64,000 nt of DNA from Candidatus Niyogibacteria bacterium CG10_big_fil_rev_8_21_14_0_10_46_36 (GTDB lineage Bacteria; Patescibacteriota; Minisyncoccia; 1-14-0-10-42-19): positions 17,001 to 81,000 of the forward strand of contig PFCO01000005.1 in assembly GCA_002772995.1 (NCBI GenBank), given 5' to 3'. Of the stretch, positions 649 to 60,811 are shown piece by piece. A program made the position numbers and the translations under genes. The notes beneath the pieces were generated by a model. The model saw only the letters and a program-made list of their open reading frames with translations. It was not told the origin of the DNA and did no database searches. Position 1 is the first letter of the stretch. Every line of letters starts with the position of its first letter.

Positions 649-3255
649 ATGAAAAACCGAGGCACGACATCTACTATGGCGGAACAGAAGCGAACGCGGT
701 ACAAAGACCTTCTGTCCAGAAATAAGAAGATAATTATCACGCCCGAAGAAATGAATCGGATAAAATCCGAGGAATGGTTGGGGCAAAAAAGCGCTCTGGG
801 GCAGCTGGAAAGATATCTTTCCATAGAAAGTCCACGCCACAACATCGCAGCAATAGGAGGCCACGGCACCGGACGCATGAAAACAATCCGCGAAGCGCTG
901 AAGAAATACACTCAAACGGAAGCAGCCCTTGAAGATCTCATAGCCCTGCATAACCCCAATGAACCGGAGTGCCCCATCTGTATATGGGTTCCCGCTGGGT
1001 TTGGGAAAAAGCTCAGAGAAGCTCTTGGAGAGGTAACGAAAAATCTAAAGGATGCCTTAGCACTCGTAGACATCAATCTTCACAAACACCCAGAAAAGAA
1101 GAAGGCAGAAGCGGAATCGCGAATGAAGATGGACAGCTTTGAAAAAAGCTACGAGGAAAGAGTGTACGGCTCCGGCCTTTGCCTGATTATGCGAATGCAG
1201 TCGGGCAGGGACGAAAAACGCTATACACCGGAAGCCGACGGAAAAAACGAATACAAAACCGTGCGGGCAACTGCAGGTCCGACTATAAATATCTTCGGGT
1301 TTAGTATAGCTAAGCTTGTTACCGCAACAGACCAGAAACAGTACTACATCTTCACCGACCAGCTCGACCAGTACAAGGGAGAGAAGCTGATTGATGCGGA
1401 AACTGCGGAAAACATTTACGCGGAGATTATGAACATTGCGGAATGGAGAGATGCTGAATCCGAAAACGAACACAAAGCAGTAGAGTCAAGGAAGGAGGAC
1501 ATACGGAAATCTCTCGAAAACGAGGCGATTAATACATCGTTTGCTCCTCTTGATGCGTTGATATCGGATGAAAAAAACATCTCCCCAGAAACAAAAGCCA
1601 TTCTTGCTTCATACGAAACAGGCATAAAAAAAATGGCAGGGGAATATGCATCCCTCTTTAGTATACCGATAGCAAAGATAGACCCCATTTCGGGACAAAG
1701 CTTTGCTCCAACGATATCACAGCAAGACCCTGAGAAAAAAGAAGAGGTCATGCGGCGCATGCAGGTTAACACACTTGTTGATAACGGCGGAGTAAACACG
1801 CGGCCGGTCATCGTAGAAAAGGACATTGACCGGGGAAATATGTTCGGACGCATCCACAGAAAAGCAATGCGGGGCGTATACACATCCGACCATATGTCTC
1901 TAAAGGCAGGCTCAATCTTGCGGGCGCATAACGGATTTTTGATTCTCGACTTTGATGATATTATGTCTAACTTCATAAAGTCATATGACGGTGCGGCCAC
2001 ATTCATGCAGCTCTTAGAGTCTCTCAGCGAACAGAAGCTCGAAATAAAAAACTTTGACCCGTACGGACTCGGACCGACACAGGTTCAGACGCCGAAAATC
2101 AAGTTCAAGGTGAAGGTAATCCTGCTCCTCGGGTATTACACATACACGGGCCTTGCAGAGAGCGAAACATTCCGTAATGCGTTTAAGGCGCGCGTAGAGT
2201 TTGATGTTTCAGCAGAAAATACCAAAGAAACGATAGAACAGTTCATCGCTTTTACGCACAAAATTACGGAGGACGAGGGCCTGCGCCCCGTCTCAGAAGA
2301 CGGGATGACGGAACTCCTCGGTTTCTCGAAAAGGCTGTGTCATGTCGGCGGGAAGTTTTCTCTCAACTATGGGACACTCGCTGATGTCATACGGGAAGCA
2401 CATTATGTAAGCGACTCGGATGCAATCACCGGCACTCATATAGAGGAAGCCATTGCGCACAAGAAGAAAAGCTTGATTGCCGAAAAAGAACTTGAGGCAA
2501 GAAAGCGCTTGGACATCATCATTCGCACCGACGGAGAGCCGCGCATCGGAGAAATGACTGGGCTTGGGGTGATAAATTTCGGAGGCGTGCGCTTCGGTAT
2601 TACGAGCCGCGCAACCGCAAATGTATCTCCGGGAACAGGGTCATTCAAGGTGAGCGACGTAGATACTGAAGTAAAACTAGCCGGTCAGATATATCAAAAA
2701 GCTATCGGCATAATTTCTTCATATCTAAAATCAAAATTCGGGGAAGGTGCAGAAAAAGTGGATGCGCAGTTCGTTATGGAGCAGTCGTATTCCGGAGTTG
2801 ACGGCGACAGCGCATCAGCTCTTACCTTCTGCACGCTTATATCCGAACTCGGCCAGATCCCGATACCGCAATGCTTTGCCATCACTGGTTCAATGTCTAT
2901 GAAAGGAGACATGGAACCTATAGGCGGGGTGAATGAGAAGGTGGAAGGATACTTTGACATCTGCAGAGAACACGGATATCCATGTTCGCATGGCATAATT
3001 ATCCCCGAGCAGAATGTAAAAGATCTCAGCTTGCGCAAAGATGTTCTGAAAGCGATACAGGAAGATACATTCCACATATATCCAGTCACTAAAATCGAAG
3101 AAGCCGTAGAGATATTAATGGGCATTCCGGCAGGAGAAAAGAAAATCCAGAAAAAAATCGGCATTGACGGACCGAAGGTCATCGAATACTACGAAGACCA
3201 CACCGCATACGGAAAAGTCCAGGAACGGCTCAAAAGCTGGAAAACAAAAAAATAA
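649..3255 (+). CDS. Lon-like (S16, LonB/LonC-type) protease with AAA-like module carrying a non-canonical P-loop
   Basis: ATG 649 is preceded by GGAGGA (636-641); the ORF-track start at 616 is TTG. The C-terminal domain has DGDSASA (Lon Ser motif) and ITGSMSMKGDMEPIGGVNEK (LonB-type GGVxxK Lys). The N-terminal region reads IGGHGTGRMKT in place of GxxGxGKS/T. Confidence 0.65.
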   Translation: MKNRGTTSTMAEQKRTRYKDLLSRNKKIIITPEEMNRIKSEEWLGQKSALGQLERYLSIESPRHNIAAIGGHGTGRMKTIREALKKYTQTEAALEDLIALHNPNEPECPICIWVPAGFGKKLREALGEVTKNLKDALALVDINLHKHPEKKKAEAESRMKMDSFEKSYEERVYGSGLCLIMRMQSGRDEKRYTPEADGKNEYKTVRATAGPTINIFGFSIAKLVTATDQKQYYIFTDQLDQYKGEKLIDAETAENIYAEIMNIAEWRDAESENEHKAVESRKEDIRKSLENEAINTSFAPLDALISDEKNISPETKAILASYETGIKKMAGEYASLFSIPIAKIDPISGQSFAPTISQQDPEKKEEVMRRMQVNTLVDNGGVNTRPVIVEKDIDRGNMFGRIHRKAMRGVYTSDHMSLKAGSILRAHNGFLILDFDDIMSNFIKSYDGAATFMQLLESLSEQKLEIKNFDPYGLGPTQVQTPKIKFKVKVILLLGYYTYTGLAESETFRNAFKARVEFDVSAENTKETIEQFIAFTHKITEDEGLRPVSEDGMTELLGFSKRLCHVGGKFSLNYGTLADVIREAHYVSDSDAITGTHIEEAIAHKKKSLIAEKELEARKRLDIIIRTDGEPRIGEMTGLGVINFGGVRFGITSRATANVSPGTGSFKVSDVDTEVKLAGQIYQKAIGIISSYLKSKFGEGAEKVDAQFVMEQSYSGVDGDSASALTFCTLISELGQIPIPQCFAITGSMSMKGDMEPIGGVNEKVEGYFDICREHGYPCSHGIIIPEQNVKDLSLRKDVLKAIQEDTFHIYPVTKIEEAVEILMGIPAGEKKIQKKIGIDGPKVIEYYEDHTAYGKVQERLKSWKTKK

Positions 3256-3302
3256 ACATATTCTCATATAGTTTAAAAGGCTCACCTTACCGTGAGCCTT
3301 TT

Positions 3303-4550
3303 TTATTTTCCCCGTACGAACTTTTTGAATGCTTCTCCGCGCTCGCGCGCGTTTTGAAACTGATCAAAGCTTGCACATGCCGGCGAGAAAAGAACAATAT
3401 CTCCCTCCTTTGCAAAAGTTATTGCTCTCTTAAACGCATCCTCCAGCGTTTTTGTTTTTATAATATTGTTTTTCTTTTTGAATGCACGTGCTATTTCATT
3501 TCTGCTCTTGCCAAAAAGGATAATGTTGTTTGTGCGCTTCCCCGCTTCGCGAGCAAATGCTGCAAAGGATGATTTCTTGCTCATGCCTCCTGCGATCAAT
3601 ATGATCTTTTGGTCAAAGCTTTTCAGTGCCGCAATCGTTGAATCGGGCGTTGTTGAATATGAATCGTCATAGAATGCAACTTCCTTTTTTCTTCCAACAT
3701 ATTCCAGACGATGCGGGAGCCCCCGGAAACCGTATATTGCTTTTTGTACATGCACGCGCTGTATGTGTATTTTTTTTGAAATAGCAAGCGCAAGCGCGAT
3801 GTTCTTCTTGTTGTGTTCGCCGCGAATATGTATGCGCCCTTCATCTACCCAGCGCGGCAATACGCTTCGCATGTTCCTTCCATCAATTTTTGCATGCGCC
3901 CGATACCCGAAAAGAGAGAGCTTTGATTTCTTATACCGCAAAAAAGAATCATACCGGTCAAGATGGTCAGGATATATATTAGTGAGCGCAGAAACAAAGA
4001 ATTGCGGCCTCATCTTTCCCAAACGAAGAAGGTCTAACTGAAAACTCGAAACCTCAAGCACAACAAATGTGCTTTTTTTGATGTGCGGGAGCTGATCCAA
4101 AAGTGACACACCAATATTTCCCCCCAAGAACACGTCCTTTTTTGCTTGTTTGAGCATTCGGTAGACAAGCGTCGCCGTAGTCCCCTTTCCTTTTGTGCCG
4201 GTGATTGCGATAATCTTCCCCTCACAATGCTTGAGAAAAAGCCCTATCTCACTTTCAACCGGAATGCGTGCCGTCGCTATCTTTTTTATCATGCGAGAAC
4301 GCAAATCAATTGCAGGGTTTATAATTGCCATATCAAATTCCTGAAAACGAGAAGGATACCCCCCAAATATATAAGAAATGCGGGGGTATCTGTGGAGCTT
4401 ACGGATTGATTGCTTAAGCTCTTTTTTTGTTTTCGCGTCGCTGATGGTTACTTCCGCGCCGCGGCTCGCAAGAAACCGCGCAGCTCCTATCCCCCCGCCC
4501 GATACGCCAAGCCCCAATACAAGAATGCGCTTCCCCTTGTATGTATTCAT
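3303..4550 (-). CDS. murD: UDP-N-acetylmuramoylalanine--D-glutamate ligase
   Basis: MNTYKGKRILVLGLGVSGGGIGAARFLASRGAEVTISD..., IAITGTKGKGTT and DDSYSTTPDST. This is the Mur ligase architecture. Start is trimmed to ATG at 4550 because the upstream extension in the ORF track overlaps a tRNA. Confidence 0.85.
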   Translation of the reverse strand: MNTYKGKRILVLGLGVSGGGIGAARFLASRGAEVTISDAKTKKELKQSIRKLHRYPRISYIFGGYPSRFQEFDMAIINPAIDLRSRMIKKIATARIPVESEIGLFLKHCEGKIIAITGTKGKGTTATLVYRMLKQAKKDVFLGGNIGVSLLDQLPHIKKSTFVVLEVSSFQLDLLRLGKMRPQFFVSALTNIYPDHLDRYDSFLRYKKSKLSLFGYRAHAKIDGRNMRSVLPRWVDEGRIHIRGEHNKKNIALALAISKKIHIQRVHVQKAIYGFRGLPHRLEYVGRKKEVAFYDDSYSTTPDSTIAALKSFDQKIILIAGGMSKKSSFAAFAREAGKRTNNIILFGKSRNEIARAFKKKNNIIKTKTLEDAFKRAITFAKEGDIVLFSPACASFDQFQNARERGEAFKKFVRGK

Positions 4551-5431: not shown

Positions 5432-6973
5432 ATGGAGAACAATACCAACAAACAACATACACGACCCCCCATTATAGTAGTCATGGGGCATATTGATCAT
5501 GGGAAAACAAAGCTGCTTGATACTATACGCAAGGAAAATGTGATTGATAAAGAATCAGGCGGCATCACCCAGCACATCGGTGCATATGAAGCGGAGGTAG
5601 AAACTGCCGCAGGAGAGAAAAAGCATATTACCTTTTTAGACACTCCAGGCCATGGCGCTTTTTCAAACATGCGCCGGCGGGGAGCGCATGTCGCGGACAT
5701 AGCAATACTCGTTGTTGCAGCAGATGACGGAGTAAAACCGCAAACCCTTGAGGCTCTCGAAGCAATTAAAACAGCCGGCATCCCGTTTGTCGTCGCGATA
5801 AACAAAATAGACAAAGCAGGAGCTGACCCAGACCGCGTAAAAAAAGAACTCTCCGAAAAAGAAGTCTTTGTAGAAGACTGGGGAGGGAAAGTACCGGCCA
5901 TTCCCATATCAGCAAAAGAAGGGACCGGCATCCAGGATCTTCTTGAAATGTTGCTGCTTGTAGCAGAGATTGAAAACCTCACAGCAGATGCAAACGCGCC
6001 CGCGGAGGGGGTTATCATAGAATCTCATCTTGAACCGAAGCGTGGAAATACTGCAACGCTTCTCGTAACGAAAGGGATTCTGAAGCACGGGGACTTTGTG
6101 ATTGCGGGCAACGCATACTCCCCGGTACGCATATTCGAGAATTTTCGGGGGCAACCCATACAGAAAGCGCCTCCCTCAACGCCCGTACGCATTACCGGAT
6201 TCAATACAATCCCGGAAGTAGGAGTTGAGTTTAAAACCGCCCATACAAAAAAAGAGGCGGAATCAATAATATCAAAACAACCGGAGCAAAAACGATCATC
6301 TTCCCCTGCTGTGGCGCCCACCACAGAAACAACCGAGGAGGCGGGACCTCATACTGCCTACCTTGTTGTTAAGGCTGATGCTACCGGCTCACTTGAAGCA
6401 ATAGAAGGAGAACTAAAAAAATTAGAAAATGAGAATCTCATTATAAAAATAATGAAAAAAGGCGTAGGATCCATCAATGAAGATGATGCAAAAGTTGCCG
6501 GGGCAACCATGGGGAGCGCGATCGTCGGGTTTCATGTGCGAGTGGAAAAAGAAGCCATTCCGACTGCAGAACGCTTTGGGGTTGCTATCAAAACATTCAC
6601 GATTATCTACGAACTGCTTGAGTGGGTGCAAGCGCACATAGAAGAAGCCGCGCCCCAAGAAACAAAAGAAGAGGTGGTGGGAGAAGCGCAAATCCTGAAA
6701 ATCTTCTCCAACAAAGGCTCAAAGCAGATTGTCGGAGGGAAGGTCATTTCGGGAGTTATCAAAAATAAAAGCAAAATACATATTGTGCGGCGAGATAATG
6801 TTATTGCGCAGGGGCGCATAGTTGAATTGCAACATGGAAAGACAGAGGCACAGGAGGTGTCCGAAGGAAATGAATTTGGTATACGCATAGACAGCCCTAC
6901 CGAAATTGTCCCGAGAGATGTCATTCAATCGCTTGAGGAGCGTACGGGGAAGCGTTCCGTATCCGCATCATAA
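5432..6973 (+). CDS. infB: Translation initiation factor IF-2 (short form starting at the G domain)
   Basis: IIVVMGHIDHGKTKLLD (G1), DTPGH (G3), NKID (G4) and the C-terminal beta-barrel domains. Confidence 0.85.
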   Translation: MENNTNKQHTRPPIIVVMGHIDHGKTKLLDTIRKENVIDKESGGITQHIGAYEAEVETAAGEKKHITFLDTPGHGAFSNMRRRGAHVADIAILVVAADDGVKPQTLEALEAIKTAGIPFVVAINKIDKAGADPDRVKKELSEKEVFVEDWGGKVPAIPISAKEGTGIQDLLEMLLLVAEIENLTADANAPAEGVIIESHLEPKRGNTATLLVTKGILKHGDFVIAGNAYSPVRIFENFRGQPIQKAPPSTPVRITGFNTIPEVGVEFKTAHTKKEAESIISKQPEQKRSSSPAVAPTTETTEEAGPHTAYLVVKADATGSLEAIEGELKKLENENLIIKIMKKGVGSINEDDAKVAGATMGSAIVGFHVRVEKEAIPTAERFGVAIKTFTIIYELLEWVQAHIEEAAPQETKEEVVGEAQILKIFSNKGSKQIVGGKVISGVIKNKSKIHIVRRDNVIAQGRIVELQHGKTEAQEVSEGNEFGIRIDSPTEIVPRDVIQSLEERTGKRSVSAS

Positions 6974-6976
6974 TCC

Positions 6977-7315
6977 ATGAGCTTTCGAAAAGAAAAGCTG
7001 GCATCCCTTCTTTCCCGCATCATACCGGAATTTATATTTTCGCATCTTCGTTATGAAGACGCGCGAGTTACTGTCACCCGGATAGACCTTTCTTCGAACT
7101 TCCAAAAGGCGGTGATTTTTGTTACGATTGACCCAAAAGACAAATCGGAAGAAGCGCTCAATGAGCTCAAAAAAATCCTCTCTTCATTAAGAAAAGAGGT
7201 TGGCAAGAATCTCTCTATGAAGTTTTTGCCGATGTTTGAATTTGAGATTGACGCGGAAGAAGAACACAGGATGCATATTGAAGCGCTTATTGAAAAAATA
7301 AAAAAAGAAAAATAA
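6977..7315 (+). CDS. rbfA: Ribosome-binding factor A
   Basis: 112 aa, LASLLSRIIPEFIFSHLRYEDARVTVTRIDLSSNFQKAVIFV. Sits directly after infB, which is the classic operon arrangement. Confidence 0.8.
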   Translation: MSFRKEKLASLLSRIIPEFIFSHLRYEDARVTVTRIDLSSNFQKAVIFVTIDPKDKSEEALNELKKILSSLRKEVGKNLSMKFLPMFEFEIDAEEEHRMHIEALIEKIKKEK

Positions 7316-7417
7316 CGGCGCAGTGGCGAAGTGGAAACGCTGGAGTCTGTCCCGACGCACTATTATAAATATATAATAATAATGAAGCCGGGGTTCTCAA
7401 TAATCAAAATTTGTAGT

Positions 7418-7489
7418 GGCCCGATAGCCAAGTGGTAAGGCATGGGTCTGCAAAACCCTTATACGCGGGTTCGATTCCCGCTCGGGCCT
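7418..7489 (+). tRNA. tRNA-Cys (GCA)
   Basis: Acceptor GGCCCGA/TCGGGCC, anticodon loop CTGCAAA, variable loop TATAC, T arm GCGGG-TTCGATT-CCCGC. Confidence 0.85.
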
Positions 7490-7579
7490 TCAAAAATTTT
7501 GATTACCGGAACAAAACTCCCATGCGGGGGTTCGATTCCCCCCTGCGCCCCAGCCGGGCATTATAACGACACGACACAT

Positions 7580-7661
7580 GCCCAGGTGGCGGAACCGGTA
7601 TACGCAGCGGACTTAAAATCCGTGGCCGAAAGGCCTGTGGGTTCGACTCCCACCCTGGGCA
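7580..7661 (+). tRNA. tRNA-Leu (TAA)
   Basis: Acceptor GCCCAGG/CCTGGGC, anticodon loop CTTAAAA, long variable arm GGCCGAAAGGCC, T arm GTGGG-TTCGACT-CCCAC. Confidence 0.85.
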
Positions 7662-7706
7662 TAATTGCTGGTGCGTACATTTTTTGATAAGGTAATATAA
7701 CTGCCT

Positions 7707-7793
7707 GGGCAGGTGGCGGAATTGGCAGACGCGCTAGCCTTAGGAGCTGGTGGGAGAAATCCCGTGGGAGTTCAACTCTCCCCCTGCCCACCA
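7707..7793 (+). tRNA. tRNA-Leu (TAG), CCA encoded
   Basis: Acceptor GGGCAGG/CCTGCCC, anticodon loop CTTAGGA, long variable arm, T arm GGGAG-TTCAACT-CTCCC, then A-CCA. Confidence 0.8.
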
Positions 7794-7810
7794 AAAATAT
7801 GCGTTGTTTT

Positions 7811-7881
7811 GCGGATATCGTTTAGTGGCAGGACACCTCGTTGCCAACGAGGAAGTGCGAGTTCGATTCTCGCTATCCGCA
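7811..7881 (+). tRNA. tRNA-Gly (GCC)
   Basis: Acceptor GCGGATA/TATCCGC, anticodon loop TTGCCAA, T arm GCGAG-TTCGATT-CTCGC. Confidence 0.85.
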
Positions 7882-7925
7882 CATATTCTATTAATTTTTC
7901 TCATCTATTGATACAATAAAAAGAT

Positions 7926-8357
7926 ATGAGCGACGAACAAAACGCCGTACCAGTGCCCTCTCCCGAGCAAAACCAGAACATAAAACTAGTTTTGGTGGTG
8001 GAAGACGACAAGTTTATGCGGAATCTCCTCGTGAATAAACTGCAAAAAGAGGGCTTTCAAACAGAAGGAGTATCTTCAGGAGAAGAAGCTCTTGAATTCA
8101 CAAAAACAAAAGCGCCAAGCCTTTTGCTCCTTGATCTTATCCTTCCGAACATAGACGGCTTTGAAGTTGTACAACAATTAAAACAGGACCCCCGTCTTGT
8201 AAATATCCCCGTGCTCATCCTTTCGAACCTTGGAGAAAAAAAGGACATTGAAAAAGCGCAAGAATTAGGCGTGTCCGGTTTTCTTATCAAAGCAAACTTT
8301 ACGCCTTCGGAAATAGTAAAAAAAGTGCAAGAACTCCTCAGCAAAAAATACATATGA
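7926..8357 (+). CDS. Single-domain response regulator (CheY-like receiver)
   Basis: IKLVLVVEDDKFMRNLL...LLLLDLILPNIDGFEV...FLIK. These are the acidic pocket, the phospho-acceptor Asp and the conserved Lys of a receiver domain. No adjacent histidine kinase. Confidence 0.7.
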   Translation: MSDEQNAVPVPSPEQNQNIKLVLVVEDDKFMRNLLVNKLQKEGFQTEGVSSGEEALEFTKTKAPSLLLLDLILPNIDGFEVVQQLKQDPRLVNIPVLILSNLGEKKDIEKAQELGVSGFLIKANFTPSEIVKKVQELLSKKYI

Positions 8358-53757: not shown

Positions 53758-54814
53758 GTGTTTTTATATATTTTTCATAGTGACGTTAATTGTTTTTGCT
53801 CAGCCAGCATTTGCTAGAGAGGTGTGGGTTTGCACGACTCCAATTGGGGGAACAACCGTATTTCTTCAACAAGACTTATGCGCAACGCAATGTAACGGTT
53901 CATGTGCGCAGTCGACTGTTCCCGACAACAATACAACCATTGAAATTTGTCCTATAGACGGGTCGGCATACCCACCCAACCCTACGAACCCGCTCGAGAG
54001 CTGTGCGGCGGCCTGTGGGGCATCGTGCACACAGGCGTCTGTCCCGGGGAGCGCTGGGGGAGCGGACACGCCTACTATTGGGGGGTCTTCTTCATCAAAC
54101 GATGGCGGCGCGCTTTTTATACAATTTTTAAACTGGCTTTTCCCCGCACTTCTTTCTATCGCAGCGCTCCTCGCGTTTGTGATGATCGTGTTTGCGGGAT
54201 TTAAGTGGATTGCCGCTGCAGGAAACCCCGCAGCAATAGAGGATGCGAAAGACATGATAATCAAAGCTGTTTTGGGACTTATCCTCGCCTTCATGTCCTG
54301 GCTTGTTTTAAACACCATCAATCCTAATCTCGTCGGGGGAGGGCTCCCTGGAGGCGGAGGCTTAAACCCCCCGGAGAACGAACAGCCAAACCCTCCCGGC
54401 AACAACCAAGACAACCCCCCTACACCAGGGACGCTTACTGACGAAGAGGCACGAAGCCAGCTTAACGCTGCCGGGATACAGGTAACATCAAGCGGAGGCT
54501 GCAGTGACCAACAAAACCCATCCTGCACATCACTTGAAGGCATACCGGCCTCTACCGTACAAAGCCTTATTTCAATTAAACAGCAATGCGGATGCTCCAT
54601 TACGATAACCGGAGGCACGGAGGTGGGACACCAAACACACGGACCGGGAAAGCCCATAGTTGACCTTTCTTTTAACGAGCCGCTTGCAAGCTATCTGCAC
54701 GATAATGCGTCATCCCTCGGCATAAGCACCATATGTACTGCGCCACAAGATGCCCAATATCGGCATAATTGCAATTTTAACGAGAGCTCACGCCATCTTC
54801 ATGTTTCATTTTAA
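53738..54814 (+). CDS. Tripartite protein: Cys-rich secreted N-domain + VirB2/TrbC-like hairpin + C-terminal putative Zn-peptidase (M15/hedgehog-DD-peptidase-like) domain
   Basis: Signal peptide and a Cys-rich region paralogous to the 24881 protein. Hairpin FIQFLNWLFPALLSIAALLAFVMIVFAGFKWIAAAGNPAAIEDAKDMIIKAVLGLILAFMSWLVL. The C-terminus has SITITGG...GHQTHGPGKPIVDLSF ... HLHVSF, which is H..G...D-like; this assignment is tentative. Confidence 0.45.
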   Translation: MPSMFNKCFYIFFIVTLIVFAQPAFAREVWVCTTPIGGTTVFLQQDLCATQCNGSCAQSTVPDNNTTIEICPIDGSAYPPNPTNPLESCAAACGASCTQASVPGSAGGADTPTIGGSSSSNDGGALFIQFLNWLFPALLSIAALLAFVMIVFAGFKWIAAAGNPAAIEDAKDMIIKAVLGLILAFMSWLVLNTINPNLVGGGLPGGGGLNPPENEQPNPPGNNQDNPPTPGTLTDEEARSQLNAAGIQVTSSGGCSDQQNPSCTSLEGIPASTVQSLISIKQQCGCSITITGGTEVGHQTHGPGKPIVDLSFNEPLASYLHDNASSLGISTICTAPQDAQYRHNCNFNESSRHLHVSF

Positions 54815-56012: not shown

Positions 56013-56486
56013 TCAAATTGGCTTTATAACAACATACCGATATTCTCCTTCCCCCCTGCTTTCCGTTGCGATATCCGGATACTCCATAAGTGCCGTATGA
56101 ATAATACGCCTCTCAAAAGGAGACATGGGCTTCATCTCAAGCTCCTTTTTAAAATAGCGAACTCGTTGCGCAGACATCCGCGCAAGCTCATACAACTGGT
56201 CTGCTTTTTGTTTGTTATAGTCATTTACATCAACAACAAACTGCATCCGTTCTTTTTGTTCTTCCGGACTAAATCCAGTCTCTCTATCAACAATGCGGCG
56301 CATAACATGATTTATAGCACGCAGATGCGCTCCATTTTCCCCGATAAGAATAGCGGCATCAGAACTTTTTACATTAAATTTGAGCCCATCCAAATATTCC
56401 ACGGCATCCAAAGACGCCGTAACGCCCATCTTTTCGATAAGCGTATGTAATAAAAAAGAAATTTTTTCTTGTGCTTCTTTATCCAT
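56013..56486 (-). CDS. jag: Jag/KhpB (R3H-domain RNA-binding protein)
   Basis: Start at MDKEAQ (ATG 56486) with GGAG upstream. C-terminal R3H: FERRIIHTALMEYPDIATESRGEGEYRYVVI. Confidence 0.75.
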   Translation of the reverse strand: MDKEAQEKISFLLHTLIEKMGVTASLDAVEYLDGLKFNVKSSDAAILIGENGAHLRAINHVMRRIVDRETGFSPEEQKERMQFVVDVNDYNKQKADQLYELARMSAQRVRYFKKELEMKPMSPFERRIIHTALMEYPDIATESRGEGEYRYVVIKPI

Positions 56487-56508
56487 TGTGCTCCGGTGCT
56501 GGAGAGGA

Positions 56509-57243
56509 TTATTGGTTCTCGGGAGCCAGAGCAAACGATTTTTTTCTCACAACACCTTCGTGTAGGATAGCAAAAACATTGGACGTTGTCCAATAGAGTG
56601 CGAGCGCTGCAGGAAAACGTAATGATATCAGAATAATAAATATAGGAAAGATATACTTCGCCTGGCTCATGAATCGCTTTGTCATGTCTTCAGGAGAGCT
56701 CGCCCCCGCTTTTTCTGTGTTGGGAGGGATGGCAAGCTTCATTTGTATAAACTGTGAAAGCCCCGCAAGGATAGCAACAATAAGGCTGGCCTCTGTAAGA
56801 TTTACGAGGGAAAGGAATTGAACATTTATCTTTTCGGGGAGAGCAATAAAAGAATATAGTAAATGTGCCGAATCAGAAATAGATTTAATGAATACCTGGT
56901 ACAGAGCAATGAGCACGGGGAACTGAATAATAAGCATGAGACATCCGGAAAACGGCGAAACACCATGCTGTTTGTATAATTCCATTGTTTTCTGAGCAAT
57001 CTCCTGTTGATTATTCTTATGTTTTTCTCGTATTTTTTTAATTTCTGGCTCAATCTCTCTTATTTTTATTTGGGTAACAATAGAACGATGAGTAAAAGGA
57101 AAAATAACAAACCGAACCAACACAGTAAGAACAATTACCGCAAGCCCCAGATCATGAAGAGGCATCAGGCCGGTAAGAAATACAAGCGCATTGAAGAGCG
57201 GCTGAAAAAAGAAATCGTTATAGATAGAAAGAAGAAATCCCAT
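56509..57243 (-). CDS. yidC: Membrane protein insertase YidC (short Oxa1-type)
   Basis: LAVIVLTVLVRFVIFPFTHRSIVTQIK...LYKQHGVSPFSGCLMLIIQFPVLIALY. Confidence 0.85.
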   Translation of the reverse strand: MGFLLSIYNDFFFQPLFNALVFLTGLMPLHDLGLAVIVLTVLVRFVIFPFTHRSIVTQIKIREIEPEIKKIREKHKNNQQEIAQKTMELYKQHGVSPFSGCLMLIIQFPVLIALYQVFIKSISDSAHLLYSFIALPEKINVQFLSLVNLTEASLIVAILAGLSQFIQMKLAIPPNTEKAGASSPEDMTKRFMSQAKYIFPIFIILISLRFPAALALYWTTSNVFAILHEGVVRKKSFALAPENQ

Positions 57244-57251
57244 GGTATGTA

Positions 57252-57479
57252 TTATGGAAGAGGGTCATGCCCTCCTTTTGAAAACGGATGGCAGCGAAAC
57301 ACTCTTCTTGTGGTATAAAAAAAAGCCTTAAAAAAACCGAAACGCTGAAACGCCTCAAGGCCATACTCAGAACAAGACGGAAAAAAGCGGCATGACGGCG
57401 TCCGCTTTATAAATATATTTTTGTCAGGAGAAAGGATTTTTTGATAGAGAGCAATGCTCTGCCGAACAACACTATTCAT
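57252..57479 (-). CDS. yidD: Membrane protein insertion efficiency factor YidD
   Basis: SIALYQKILSPDK...CRFFPSCSEYGLEAFQRFG...HPFSKGGHDPLP. Confidence 0.85.
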   Translation of the reverse strand: MNSVVRQSIALYQKILSPDKNIFIKRTPSCRFFPSCSEYGLEAFQRFGFFKAFFYTTRRVFRCHPFSKGGHDPLP

Positions 57480-57813
57480 ATAACAGGGATTGTTTTTTCA
57501 AAACATATAATACTGCGTCTTCTATATCCTGTCTTTTACGAAACTGCTTTTGAAAAACAATAATAATATCATACCCCTTTTTGATGGAAGAGACAAAACG
57601 AAACAGGATATCTTTTGTTTTTCTGCGCATGGTGTTGCGGGTAACGCTTTTTTTTGCAACCTTAGAAGATATCACCACAGCAAAGCGCGGGCGGGGTTTG
57701 TTATTCTTCTTATAATATAAAGTAATGCCACTTCCTTTTTCTCTTTTCCCGCGCACGAAAACAAGCTTCACCTCATACGAGGAAAGACGATATTCATGAG
57801 GGAGAGCGCTCAT
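57472..57813 (-). CDS. rnpA: Ribonuclease P protein component
   Basis: Start chosen at ATG 57813 (MSALPHEYRLSSYEV...); the track's 57828 start is TTG. K/R-rich RnpA motifs (RLRFAVVISSKVAKKSVTRNTMRR). Confidence 0.8.
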   Translation of the reverse strand: MSALPHEYRLSSYEVKLVFVRGKREKGSGITLYYKKNNKPRPRFAVVISSKVAKKSVTRNTMRRKTKDILFRFVSSIKKGYDIIIVFQKQFRKRQDIEDAVLYVLKKQSLLYE

Positions 57814-57820
57814 ATGTCCT

Positions 57821-57958
57821 TTAGACAACTACTCTTTTCCGCCCTTTCTGCCTTCTTCTGCGAACAACATTCCTTCCTGCCGTCGTGCTTTTTCTCTTTA
57901 AAAATCCGTGAGACCTCTTTCTCTTCCTTTTTTTGGGTTGATAGGTTCGTTTTGGCAT
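57821..57958 (-). CDS. rpmH: 50S ribosomal protein L34
   Basis: Manual minus-strand translation gives [45 protein letters not shown]. The ORF track omits it because it is shorter than 60 aa. Confidence 0.85.
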
Positions 57959-58120
57959 GTGTTTCTTACTTTACCACAGAATTTTATATTTACAATATTA
58001 ACAGCTCATCCACAGATTGTTAACATAAGTAGTAACCTTATCGGGGTTTCTTTATAAAAAACTGCGGGTGCTATAATACCATTATATCTATTCTTTTTTT
58101 TATTCTAAACAGACCTGCTT

Positions 58121-59485
58121 ATGTTTATGACAAACGAGGAGTTGTGGCAAAAGACGCTTGAGGAAATACGGTTCGAAGTTTCAACAGCTAATTTTATTAC
58201 CTGGTTTCAGCATACCATTATTACTGAACAAAAAGACCAAGCAATTACCGTCGGCGTGCCGAATGCTTTTGTAAAAGAATGGATAGAATCAAAATACCAA
58301 AAACCTATTCTTAAAATAATACGAAATTTTGTCCCCGATGTTCGGTCTGTGGAGTTTTCTATACTTCCAAAACTTTCTCAGAAACAACAACCGGCATCTT
58401 TGGTTAAAAAACAACAACCCCAGGAACAACAAGAAATATCCGAGCTCTCTATAGACAAAGAAACAAACCTCAACCCACGCTATTCTTTTGATAACTTTAT
58501 TGTGGGTTCTTTTAATGAGCTCGCATATGCTGCCTCTCAGGCTATTGTAAATAACCTCGGTGCGGTTTATAACCCGTTTTTCATCTACGGTGGTGTTGGG
58601 TTGGGAAAAACACACCTCTTACAAGCTGTAGGAAACGAAATACGCAGAAAAAACCCGCACACAAAGATAAAATACATATCATCGGAAAAGTTTACAAATG
58701 AATTTATAACAGCTGTTCAAAATAAAGAAACAAATTATTTCAAAGAACGGTATCGGATGATAGATTTGCTTATTATTGACGACATTCAATTTATATCAAA
58801 AAAAGTTCAGACCCAAGAAGAAATATTTCACACATTCAACACGCTATACGAGAACAATAAGCAGATTATTTTATCATCAGACAGACCCCCAAAACTAATA
58901 GAAAACCTTGAGGAACGCCTCCGGTCGCGCTTTGAGGGAGGTATGATAGCCGACATATCAGAGCCGGAGTACGAGGCCCGTCTCGCAATACTTCACACAA
59001 AAAGGAAGGAGAAAGACCTCACAATAGCGGATGATGTCTTGGAATATATAGCGGCATCTATAAAATCAAATATTCGCGAACTAGAAGGCGCTCTTAACCT
59101 TATCGCTGTCCGATTAAAACTCCAAAAAAGCCCTCTCTCTATAAACGAGGTGAAAGAAATACTCTCAAAACACATCCAACCAAGAAAGGTGGTTACCGCA
59201 AAACAAATAATCCGCGCTGTAAGTAAATTTTATAATACACAAGAAAAATTCCTTATAGAAAAAACAAGGAGGAAAGATATTGTAAAACCTCGCCAAATAG
59301 CAATGTACCTTCTTCGAGAAGATTTTAATGGATCATACCCCTACATCGGACAAAAACTTGGCGGAAGAGATCACACAACAGCGATACACTCATATGAAAA
59401 AATATCGCGCGATATCAAAAAAGACAAACAACTCCAGGAGGAAATAAAACAAATTCGACTAAATTTTTACTATAATCAAGAATAA
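58121..59485 (+). CDS. dnaA: Chromosomal replication initiator protein DnaA
   Basis: FDNFIVGSFNELAYAASQAI...FFIYGGVGLGKTHLLQAVGNE, LIIDDIQF, sensor and domain IV (PRQIAMYLLRE). Confidence 0.9.
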   Translation: MFMTNEELWQKTLEEIRFEVSTANFITWFQHTIITEQKDQAITVGVPNAFVKEWIESKYQKPILKIIRNFVPDVRSVEFSILPKLSQKQQPASLVKKQQPQEQQEISELSIDKETNLNPRYSFDNFIVGSFNELAYAASQAIVNNLGAVYNPFFIYGGVGLGKTHLLQAVGNEIRRKNPHTKIKYISSEKFTNEFITAVQNKETNYFKERYRMIDLLIIDDIQFISKKVQTQEEIFHTFNTLYENNKQIILSSDRPPKLIENLEERLRSRFEGGMIADISEPEYEARLAILHTKRKEKDLTIADDVLEYIAASIKSNIRELEGALNLIAVRLKLQKSPLSINEVKEILSKHIQPRKVVTAKQIIRAVSKFYNTQEKFLIEKTRRKDIVKPRQIAMYLLREDFNGSYPYIGQKLGGRDHTTAIHSYEKISRDIKKDKQLQEEIKQIRLNFYYNQE

Positions 59486-59713
59486 CTCCGCCCTGAATAA
59501 AGATGTGTACTGTATGTGAATATAAAAAAGAATAAAAAAAATAAACCACAGCAAGAACACACAATACACACACCGCACACAAAAAACTACACACAATATT
59601 AACACCAAGAAGACAAAATAAACCTTACACAATAACAATCATTCACCTTATACACATTATTCACACCCCCTATTGTTACTACTAATTAAGTATAAAGAAT
59701 ATATAGTTATCAT
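59486..59713. promoter_or_regulatory. Candidate oriC (dnaA-dnaN intergenic): AT-rich, ACACA-rich, tandem DnaA-box-like 9-mers
   Basis: TTATACACA (59648-59656) directly abuts TTATTCACA (59657-59665), both one mismatch from TTATCCACA. There are additional CTACACACA / AATACACAC elements. The rpmH-rnpA-yidC-jag | dnaA-dnaN synteny is typical of origins. Confidence 0.45.
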
Positions 59714-60811
59714 ATGAACACATCTTGTGTAAAAGAAGATCTGCAAAAAGCACTCACGGTAGCTGAGCGGCACACAAGCGCAGAGGAGAACCTTCCATTA
59801 CTGAAAGGCGTCCTTTTAGAAAGCAGTGAGAATAAGTTGTATGTGCGATCGACAAATCTTGATACCGGTATTGAGGTGTTTGTGCCCACGAAAACAAAAA
59901 GAAAAGGGTCTGTTGTTGTTCCTGCGAAGACATTCTCATCTTTTTTAACCACCTTACCTGATGAGCGGATAACGCTTGATGTGAAGAATGGAAATCTAGT
60001 TGTAACGACGCCGTCAACTTCAACAACCATTAAGGGGTATTCTGCTGATGACTTTCCTCCATTTCCTAAGTTAAAAAAAACAACATCTATACAGATTTCT
60101 AATGATGATTTATCTAGAGATTTATTAAGTGTTGTTATTGCTGCGTCGTCATCCGAAATAAAGCCAGAGATATCAAGTGTTCTTTTTAGTGTCCAAAAAA
60201 AAGGTATTAAATTTGTAGCAACAGATTCATTTCGGTTAGCAGAAAAGACGATACCTTTTTCTTCAGATCAATATTATTCTCTTCTTTTCCCGTTTCGTCA
60301 TGTGCTTGAGTTGATTAAGGTGGTGGAGATTTTTCCGTCTTCGCTTGAGATATTGTTTGATTCAAATCAAGCAATTCTGCGTGGTAATAATTTTTTATAT
60401 TTCGCTCGTTTGCGTGATGCGTCATTTCCTCAATATGAGCAGATCATACCAACTTCGTTTGCTACAGAGGTTACGCTTAAAAAATCAAACTTTCTAAAAG
60501 CGATACGTGGAGCAAGTATTTTTTCGGGGCGTCTTCGGGAGGTGTGTTTTAATGTGTATCCTGAGGATAATTTATTTGAGGTTGTTACAAAAAATAGTGA
60601 TATTGGGGAGTATGTGAGCCAAATACCCGCCAAGGTAACCGGAGAGCGCTTAAGTGTTAATTTTAATTATGGTTATATTATTGATGGCATTAATCAAATA
60701 TCCTCAGATGATATTATTCTCCGTTTTAATGGCGAGTCAAAGCCGGTATTAATACAGAATCCATATAATGCGAGTTATATTTATCTCGCTATGCCGATGA
60801 AGAATATATAA
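59714..60811 (+). CDS. dnaN: DNA polymerase III beta sliding clamp
   Basis: 365 aa, three-domain clamp. MNTSCVKEDLQKALTVAERHTS...LPLLKGVLLES. Confidence 0.85.
   Translation: MNTSCVKEDLQKALTVAERHTSAEENLPLLKGVLLESSENKLYVRSTNLDTGIEVFVPTKTKRKGSVVVPAKTFSSFLTTLPDERITLDVKNGNLVVTTPSTSTTIKGYSADDFPPFPKLKKTTSIQISNDDLSRDLLSVVIAASSSEIKPEISSVLFSVQKKGIKFVATDSFRLAEKTIPFSSDQYYSLLFPFRHVLELIKVVEIFPSSLEILFDSNQAILRGNNFLYFARLRDASFPQYEQIIPTSFATEVTLKKSNFLKAIRGASIFSGRLREVCFNVYPEDNLFEVVTKNSDIGEYVSQIPAKVTGERLSVNFNYGYIIDGINQISSDDIILRFNGESKPVLIQNPYNASYIYLAMPMKNI

Follow-up and report, generated by a model that had tools for sequence, protein, structure and literature searches.

Group I introns, often with homing-endonuclease genes, occupy the anticodon loops of bacterial tRNA genes, as in cyanobacterial tRNA-Leu (UAA) and Azoarcus tRNA-Ile. 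To our knowledge, integrase-borne islands are the only mobile DNA that targets tRNA genes. In synthetic cleave-and-rescue and home-and-rescue drives, an essential gene is inactivated, a linked rescue is supplied and the element cannot be lost. In the review PMC4390854, self-splicing introns are the only known interruptions of bacterial tRNA genes, while bulge-helix-bulge introns, split and tri-split tRNAs and the transposition of introns in Thermoproteales are described for archaea there and by Fujishima et al. (as cited in PMC10714607). Free-standing homing endonucleases and intronless homing are known from phage T4, namely SegB in the tRNA cluster, SegF and MobE (PMC2790892, PMC13096335). 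A full-text literature search returned no description of nested tRNA-Cys genes or of an element like the insert named E in this study, an absence that is no proof of novelty. Each of the nearest known systems shares features with E and departs from it in at least one defining feature.

The Nested tRNA-Cys Locus

The window, that is, the whole 64-kb stretch of DNA analysed, belongs to an uncultured groundwater bacterium (Parcubacteria, Candidate Phyla Radiation), in which the nest is located in the gene order infB, rbfA, nest, tRNA-Leu(TAA), tRNA-Leu(TAG), tRNA-Gly(GCC) and response regulator. The RbfA encoded beside the nest matches, at 100% identity, a protein of 'Candidatus Niyogibacteria bacterium CG10_big_fil_rev_8_21_14_0_...'. 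The outer tRNA was found in two halves, at 7317-7349 and 7512-7550, with a 162-nt insert (7350-7511) between them, and this insert carries a complete tRNA-Cys(GCA) at 7418-7489, flanked by a perfect 12-bp inverted repeat. A sequence-only reading of the window had already described tRNA halves around an insert with a complete tRNA-Cys inside a perfect 12-bp inverted repeat, which the sequence, ARAGORN and Rfam all confirm, and its term "nested tRNA gene" describes the arrangement correctly. Several of its details were revised: the insert, given as 169 nt, measures 162 nt; the boundaries of the halves, placed at 7317-7346 and 7516-7550, were corrected by means of the intact gene of a related contig (L002); and the supposed encoded CCA after the acceptor strand is really the discriminator C7550 followed by CA-G. 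The features of the locus are as follows.

7317-7349, + strand: 5′ half of the outer (resident) tRNA-Cys, tRNA positions 1-34, comprising the acceptor 5′ strand (7317-7323), the D arm (7326-7340), the 5′ side of the anticodon stem (7342-7346) and C32, U33 and G34 (7347-7349); from ARAGORN in intron mode and a 33/33 match to L002 3136-3168
7350-7393, + strand: hairpin 1 of E, closed by (T)CCCG/CGGG(G), with an AT-rich loop and one A.C mismatch near the base; from the fold of E after GAAA was put in place of the cargo tRNA
7394-7417, + strand: 5′ arm of hairpin 2 of E, which is the leader of the inner tRNA and holds the repeat arm 7401-7412, TAATCAAAATTT; from the inverted repeat and the fold
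7418-7489, + strand: inner (cargo) tRNA-Cys(GCA), complete, with U73; from ARAGORN, Rfam (68.1 bits) and the identical cargo in L010
7490-7511, + strand: 3′ arm of hairpin 2 of E, which is the trailer of the inner tRNA, holds the repeat arm 7494-7505, AAATTTTGATTA, and ends at the 3′ junction with CCGGAA; from the inverted repeat and the fold
7512-7550, + strand: 3′ half of the outer tRNA-Cys, tRNA positions 35-73, comprising C35, A36, A37 and A38 (7512-7515), the 3′ side of the anticodon stem (7516-7520), the variable loop (7521-7525), the T arm (7526-7542), the acceptor 3′ strand (7543-7549) and the discriminator C at 7550 (U in all intact copies); from ARAGORN in intron mode, the L002 match and the comparison of position 73

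At the nest, the inner tRNA-Cys was the sole call of both default ARAGORN and the Rfam tRNA model. When introns and overlaps were allowed, a check that the earlier reading had proposed, ARAGORN called the outer tRNA at 7317-7551 with the 162-nt insert in its anticodon loop, the outer anticodon shifting between GTA and GTC with the placement of the junction. All four outer stems are perfectly paired, i.e., acceptor (7317-7323/7543-7549), D (7326-7328/7338-7340), anticodon (7342-7346/7516-7520) and T (7526-7530/7538-7542), so that the complementarity claimed from the sequence alone is upheld by the intron-mode call and the stem coordinates. The inverted repeat 7401-7412/7494-7505 is perfect and extends with mismatches into the inner acceptor stem, and a fold of the 236-nt region (z = -4.1) retains both the inner cloverleaf and the repeat helix. 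The nest was compared across five independent assemblies of this organism, from different samples, and no differences appeared over 301 bases in four of them and over 162 bases in L030, the contig of which breaks off within the inner tRNA; an assembly artefact is thereby ruled out. The structural calls together with these identical assemblies establish that the nest is real, neither chance nor artefact. A sixth contig (Logan) is chimeric inside the inner tRNA.

Other observations were made in and around the locus. An 81-aa ORF at 7442-7687 (+) that crosses the inner tRNA-Cys, the 3′ half of the outer gene and tRNA-Leu is almost certainly spurious; in one public assembly it was called a gene (L027 1966-2211). 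The word-indexed search detected no RbfA homologues beyond the organism itself. The stretch 56013-60811 resembles a replication origin, with jag-like, yidC-like, dnaA and dnaN ORFs, a G+C content that falls to 0.39-0.41 and the minimum of the cumulative GC skew; some 50 kb separate this stretch from the tRNA cluster.

Identity of the Outer Gene

Relatives were collected as the contigs that carry the nearest IF-2 homologues, L002 having an IF-2 identity of 73%. At the equivalent locus, L002 carries an intact tRNA-Cys(GCA) (3136-3207), to whose first 33 nt the window positions 7317-7349 are identical (33/33), while 7512-7549 match its positions 34-71 at 36/38 (94.7%). In its 3′ part, the window copy departs from L002 at one T-stem pair, changed from C-G to G-C with pairing kept, and at the discriminator, where C stands in place of the U of L002. 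Joining the outer halves of the window in silico yields a tRNA-Cys(GCA). This match to the intact gene identifies the outer gene as a tRNA-Cys cut between G34 and C35 (CTG^CAAA, with ^ marking the junction) by the insert 7350-7511, and by sequence comparison the outer halves are the remnant of the resident tRNA-Cys(GCA) gene downstream of rbfA. The inner and outer 3′ halves of the window are 76% identical, i.e., they are different alleles.

The loop CTGTCCC with anticodon GTC, as first read, is thus replaced by the loop CTG^CAAA with GCA (Cys), and both GTC (Asp; the earlier reading) and GTA (Tyr; ARAGORN) are ruled out as outer anticodons, the orthologue being Cys(GCA). A search for an isoacceptor otherwise missing from the genome had been proposed as well; since the outer gene is orthologous to tRNA-Cys(GCA) and the inner gene has the same anticodon, the isoacceptor is not missing and the inner gene supplies it. 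Two further candidates were rejected, namely a tRNA-His-like G-1/C73 register, which would wreck U8 and the D-stem register, and a tmRNA or permuted tmRNA, for which the Rfam matches are at noise level only.

Architecture and Family of Element E

In the window, E is a 162-nt DNA cassette without a protein, placed exactly between G34 and C35 of the outer anticodon loop. Inserts at the same junction were found in L002, L005 and L010, and the cargo tRNA of L010 is identical to that of the window. The outline of E reads CTG ^ yCCCGACG...AATGAAGyCGG...ATAATyAAAA...TAGT - tRNA-Cys - TyAAAAATTTT...ATTAyCGGrA ^ CAAAAC. Metagenomes were scanned with the 3′ junction GGRACAARACYCYYRTRCRSGGGTTC as the pattern, which gave 11 contigs, all of them tRNA-Cys genes or 3′ halves cut at CTG^...^CAAAAC, with inserts that end ...CGGGA at ^CAAAAC; this sample of nests is biased because the pattern demanded a junction beside a tRNA-Cys 3′ half. 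Besides these 11, further cases of E are present in L002, L005, L010 and L025/L026. Viral contigs scanned with the junction pattern gave 0 matches, and so offer no sign of a phage vector.

With the cargo tRNA swapped for GAAA, every copy of E folds as two tandem hairpins that span the first to the last nucleotide of the insert, with z between -2.6 and -10.9, the window copy being the most degenerate (z -2.6). The hairpin feet are like TCCCGA...TCGGGA and the centre is often the palindrome TCGAGGA-TCCTCGA; the hairpins of L010, L002 and L005 that are homologous to hairpin 1 of the window are closed by CCCCGAC/GTCGGGG. Two types were recognised: type 1, with the cargo in the loop of hairpin 2 (window, L010, L011, L013 and L015), and type 2, with the cargo in the loop of hairpin 1 (L002 3120-3273 and L025). 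The 12-bp inverted repeat of the window is the stem of hairpin 2, and terminal inverted repeats are present in E generally, this stem being 12 bp and perfect in the window, with about 20-23 paired bases in L013 and L010. The hairpin-2 stem of the window is set apart from that of L010 by two compensatory substitutions and one compensatory one-base indel, and L009 holds two 30-nt cargo-less copies of E whose mutual differences are compensatory in both hairpins. E ranges from 30 to 167 nt in size, the independent nests from about 143 to 167 nt.

No second copy of the E motifs was found in the 64-kb window, and in about 211 kb of loci the centre motifs occur almost only in tRNA-Cys nests, plus one short stray hairpin in L011. 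A second occurrence of GTCTGTCCC at window position 54037 lies inside a coding sequence and was set aside as a chance match. Related cargo-less hairpin units were observed in relic tRNA-Cys genes (L002 3358-3441, L017 113-285, L013 1055-1123 and L025 5125-5165), where some interrupt the T loop, following either C56 or the TG of TGCAAAT, and others the D loop, following G19. The T-loop hairpin of L025, inserted after TG of TGCAAAT, occupies the same TG^CAAA as the anticodon-loop target. A consensus scan found no internal sigma-70 promoter for the cargo tRNA on the + strand. The conserved (T/A)ATAATGAAG in the hairpin-1 loop of type-1 E (window 7381-7390, L002 2933-2942, L010 1293-1302) might be a -10 element for the cargo tRNA, though the consensus promoter scan made no call there.

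An Rfam scan of window 6800-8300 at E-values up to 10 and scans of six related loci returned only tRNA matches and noise, with no group I or II intron, ribozyme or other Rfam family even at such permissive thresholds. The region 7317-7552 had been proposed for folding in search of a geometry like the bulge-helix-bulge; none is present in the predicted folds, and inspection of the sequence found no 4-bp helix between offset bulges. In the predicted folds, the two insert junctions share a single loop, which is bordered by the anticodon stem and the E hairpin feet. Folding of the hairpins is as good on the + strand as on the - strand, and G.U pairs make up 15/355 on the + strand and 14/369 on the - strand (about 4%); an RNA-specific structure was set aside for E given the lack of strand asymmetry and of G.U excess. 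Strand symmetry and the few G.U pairs point to plain DNA palindromes rather than wobble-tolerant RNA, and we favour E as a DNA-level element.

Distribution and Target Site of E

The rbfA-tRNA-Cys site is empty, with an uninterrupted tRNA-Cys, in L020, L022, L023 and L024, and in L006 and L007 the tRNA-Cys after rbfA is uninterrupted up to the contig ends. L025/L026 carry the L024 allele with a type-2 E, joined without target duplication or base loss. No target-site duplication was found: the junctions of the window rejoin exactly to CTGCAAA, with which the comparison of L024 (empty) and L025 (filled) agrees. E occurs in at least three genomic contexts, i.e., after rbfA, after a 3D-domain gene (L009 and L011) and downstream of a 16S rRNA gene (L015/L019), and in tRNA-Cys alleles with the differing anticodon stems GGAGT, TGGGT, AGGGT and GCGGT. 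The target GTCTG^CAAAAC is the sole constant and is invariant in all tRNA-Cys alleles seen. E shares with homing elements the empty and occupied alleles, the precise junction and the conserved essential target. In L002, L005 and L010, the cargo tRNAs are themselves invaded, which yields multi-layer nests and fragment mosaics.

A complete 16S rRNA gene is located at L015 999-2502 (-), about 500 nt upstream, in the sense of transcription, of the L015 nest, which may therefore belong to an rRNA operon or directly follow one. At L009 3813-3997, L011 (reverse-complemented) 6456-6745 and L012 1-100, an intact gene is followed by a stack of solo tRNA-Cys 3′ halves from different alleles; those of L009 and L011 are each preceded by the shared AAAAGTCTG and E, with no 5′ half. 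Short-read contigs stop just after rbfA or inside tRNA-Cys in L003, L004, L006, L007 and L008, and L031 switches to a different tRNA after CAAAACCCT, from position 996 onward. Evidently, repeats of the E type interrupt assemblies or turn them chimeric.

Fate of the Outer Copies

In every nest, only the innermost gene is intact. When the outer copies were rejoined, 7 of the 10 were not tRNAs according to ARAGORN, the three accepted being those of the window, L015 and L019. The L019 copy is chimeric, its acceptor 3′ strand having been replaced by that of its own cargo, and in the L015 copy one additional C separates the T stem from the acceptor stem. A D-loop insert, a degenerate 5′ side of the anticodon stem and uncompensated acceptor changes mark the outer copies of L013, L014 and L016, while those of L010, L011 and L025 miss one half. 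Position 73 is T in 13/13 distinct intact or inner 3′ halves and C in the outer copy of the window; U73 is the principal identity element for CysRS. The decay of seven of ten copies, the chimera and the lost T73 indicate that the outer copies are not under the selection expected for spliced exons. From these sequences we infer that the outer gene is no longer used and that the inner gene is the working one; the outer tRNA-Cys of the window is probably a non-functional relic.

Proposed Origin and Mobilisation of E

Very probably, a resident gene was disrupted by E, a mobile disrupt-and-replace cassette, and the outer halves are what remains of that gene. The recurrence of E in related bacteria, sometimes in nested form, suggests a selfish element, not described before, by which an essential gene is broken and its substitute provided. 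Disruption of a tRNA gene by insertion was among the options named by the sequence-only reading, and it is the one that fits the existence of the E family and the decay of the outer copies. E would insert at G34^C35 of the single-copy, essential tRNA-Cys gene, an invasion that would be tolerated because E brings a substitute tRNA-Cys; once the outer copy decays, E could no longer be lost; and since the cargo tRNAs retain the target GTCTG^CAAAAC, they could be invaded in turn, giving rise to multi-level nests. The favoured way of spreading is homing in trans, in which a double-strand break at the target would be followed by gene conversion.

An RNA-level explanation takes the insert for an intron, or the locus for a split tRNA, in which the hairpin-2 stem holds the outer halves together and a single locus gives rise to two tRNA-Cys: RNase P and RNase Z would free the inner tRNA, and the halves would be ligated (e.g., by RtcB) or act as a nicked tRNA. 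It accounts for a precise insertion in a loop, for related hairpins behind G19 of the D loop and C56 of the T loop, both sites typical of archaeal non-canonical introns, for the intact outer stems of the window, including the T-stem pair compensated relative to L002, which make an RNA-level role conceivable for this one copy, and for a whole region that folds at z = -4.1 with the inner cloverleaf and the inverted repeat kept. However, the junctions share one loop with abutting hairpins and form no bulge-helix-bulge, no group I, group II or ribozyme match was obtained, and the anticodon loop would still contain about 90 nt once the inner tRNA was removed. Seven of the ten outer copies cannot be rebuilt, solo 3′ halves occur with E but without a 5′ half, the outer copy of the window has C73 against U73 in all intact copies, and the stems show neither G.U enrichment nor strand bias. 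We regard this explanation as very improbable, and the split tRNA with halves joined by a flanking helix, which had been put forward from the sequence alone, is not supported, given the same lack of bulge-helix-bulge, ribozyme and group I signals, the mostly decayed outer copies of the relatives and the loss of U73.

Two DNA-level alternatives were also weighed. A local rearrangement without mobility, in which a tandem duplication of tRNA-Cys is followed by recombination or slippage that nests one copy and leaves the hairpins as by-products, draws on the fact that tRNA-Cys segments do recombine, as in the chimeric 3′ half of L019 and the 67-nt direct repeat of L002. It is nevertheless very unlikely, given that G34^C35, the hairpin-end motifs and the two-hairpin plan recur across alleles, loci and divergent lineages, that the inner and outer genes are different alleles (76% identical 3′ halves in the window) rather than duplicates, and that empty orthologous sites were found. 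Independent nests also share a size of about 143-167 nt and the hairpin plan, which random deletion of an island would not give; together with the absence of any integrase gene or remnant near a nest and of a direct-repeat att core around the insert, and with an insert that holds a whole tRNA rather than a replacement 3′ part, this makes it very unlikely that E is the footprint of a tRNA-targeting integrative element whose integrase crossed over in the anticodon loop and which was later deleted to about 160 nt. Anticodon loops are classical integrase targets, which counts for such a footprint, as do the tRNA 3′ halves stacked downstream of intact genes in L009, L011 and L012 in the manner of decayed att sites.

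For the mobile cassette, break-induced gene conversion is the favoured transfer route, on account of the frequent homing-endonuclease genes in the tRNA clusters of the relatives and of a repeat in L002 resembling co-conversion. This 67-nt direct repeat, which looks like a co-conversion tract, is made up of an exon flank, an E arm and the beginning of the cargo. LAGLIDADG, HNH and GIY-YIG genes, confirmed against Pfam, lie against the 5′ ends of tRNA-Leu and tRNA-Cys in these clusters; the LAGLIDADG and HNH frames adjoin tRNA-Leu, not tRNA-Cys. No integrase or homing-endonuclease homologue was detected in the 64-kb window or beside the nests examined, and no recombinase or transposase was seen beside nests. 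As the main alternative, E would be moved by a dedicated recombinase or transposase that is specific for structure and acts on its conserved hairpin ends. The conserved TCCCGA...TCGGGA would be unneeded for simple endonuclease-driven homing, so something appears to recognise or maintain the ends of E, and these conserved hairpin ends suggest a dedicated recognising enzyme. Tentatively, E may represent a new class, namely a non-autonomous, site-specific palindromic mobile element of the Candidate Phyla Radiation that is moved by a structure-recognising enzyme instead of ordinary intron homing and acts as a natural disrupt-and-rescue drive, though we hold this to be somewhat less likely than not; the chance that the mobilisation mechanism of E is itself new is of the same size, and substantial.

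The endonuclease frames of the relatives were observed in the following positions. HNH/LAGLIDADG frames are found directly upstream of tRNA-Leu(TAA) and tRNA-Leu(TAG), with 3′ ends that run into the tRNA, at L002 3543-4106 and 4361-4993 and at L005 3692-4414; likewise, they precede tRNA-Leu in L016 (reverse-complemented, 3049-3765), L014 and L018, and they are absent from the window and L013. Only the last 24 nt of an HNH frame are left in L010. The LAGLIDADG proteins of L005 and L016 are 56% identical. A 78-aa GIY-YIG frame at L009 3495-3761 (+) is located at the 5′ end of tRNA-Cys and ends inside the tRNA, the first 13 nt of which (GGCCTGGTAGCCA) are duplicated upstream of the frame.

Comparison with Known Systems

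Beside self-splicing introns and integrase-borne islands, the nest constitutes a third arrangement: an essential tRNA gene present in a single copy is destroyed by a protein-less cassette, about 160 nt long, that brings the substitute along. If mobile, E would explain how selfish DNA can colonise indispensable genes in tiny genomes. In practical terms, standard tRNA finders return the inner gene only, gene callers put spurious frames across the nest and assemblers break or chimerise at it, so that the tRNA complements and the genome contiguity of the Candidate Phyla Radiation are affected.

Group I introns resemble E in their precise insertion into bacterial anticodon loops, in their sporadic presence with empty orthologous sites and in the homing-endonuclease genes alongside them. 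E, in contrast, has no group I fold or Rfam match and consists of plain palindromic hairpins of 30-167 nt; its host tRNA is not preserved, and it carries a replacement tRNA instead of splicing. The archaeal introns and split tRNAs share with E the short, protein-less inserts at anticodon, D-loop and T-loop sites, the evidence of movement between tRNA genes and the helices that join halves, whereas the host of E is bacterial, no bulge-helix-bulge is formed, the exons decay and the insert contains a whole tRNA of the same specificity. Unlike the parts of a split or permuted tRNA, the halves in the window are collinear and enclose a complete tRNA-Cys that has the same anticodon.

Islands and prophages that integrate into tRNA genes are similar to E in targeting tRNA, including the anticodon loop, in keeping its function by means of carried tRNA sequence and in displacing 3′ fragments. 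E differs from them in having no integrase, in measuring about 160 nt and not kilobases, and in carrying a complete tRNA while the resident gene is left broken. As is favoured for E, the T4 homing endonucleases spread selfishly by break-induced gene conversion in tRNA clusters, with co-conversion of flanks, and the GIY-YIG, HNH and LAGLIDADG genes in the relatives of the window abut tRNA genes; but E encodes no protein and has conserved structured ends, and no endonuclease is linked to G34^C35. REP/BIME/REPIN, Correia elements and the IS200/IS605-derived PATEs are, like E, small non-autonomous hairpin DNAs with conserved ends and compensatory stems, and are strand-symmetric. Against such palindromic repeats and MITEs, E is confined to one site in one tRNA species, makes no target-site duplication, holds a tRNA gene in its hairpin loop and has no other copy in 64 kb. 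In PATEs of the IS200/IS605 type, the hairpins are sub-terminal with the cargo between them, whereas the feet of E abut the junctions and its cargo lies inside a hairpin loop.

The synthetic rescue drives follow the same logic as E, which differs from them in being natural and prokaryotic and in using an RNA gene as its rescue copy. The rescue copy of E, unlike theirs, is not resistant to further invasion, which accounts for the nesting. If mobile, E would be the natural counterpart of the engineered cleave-and-rescue drives.
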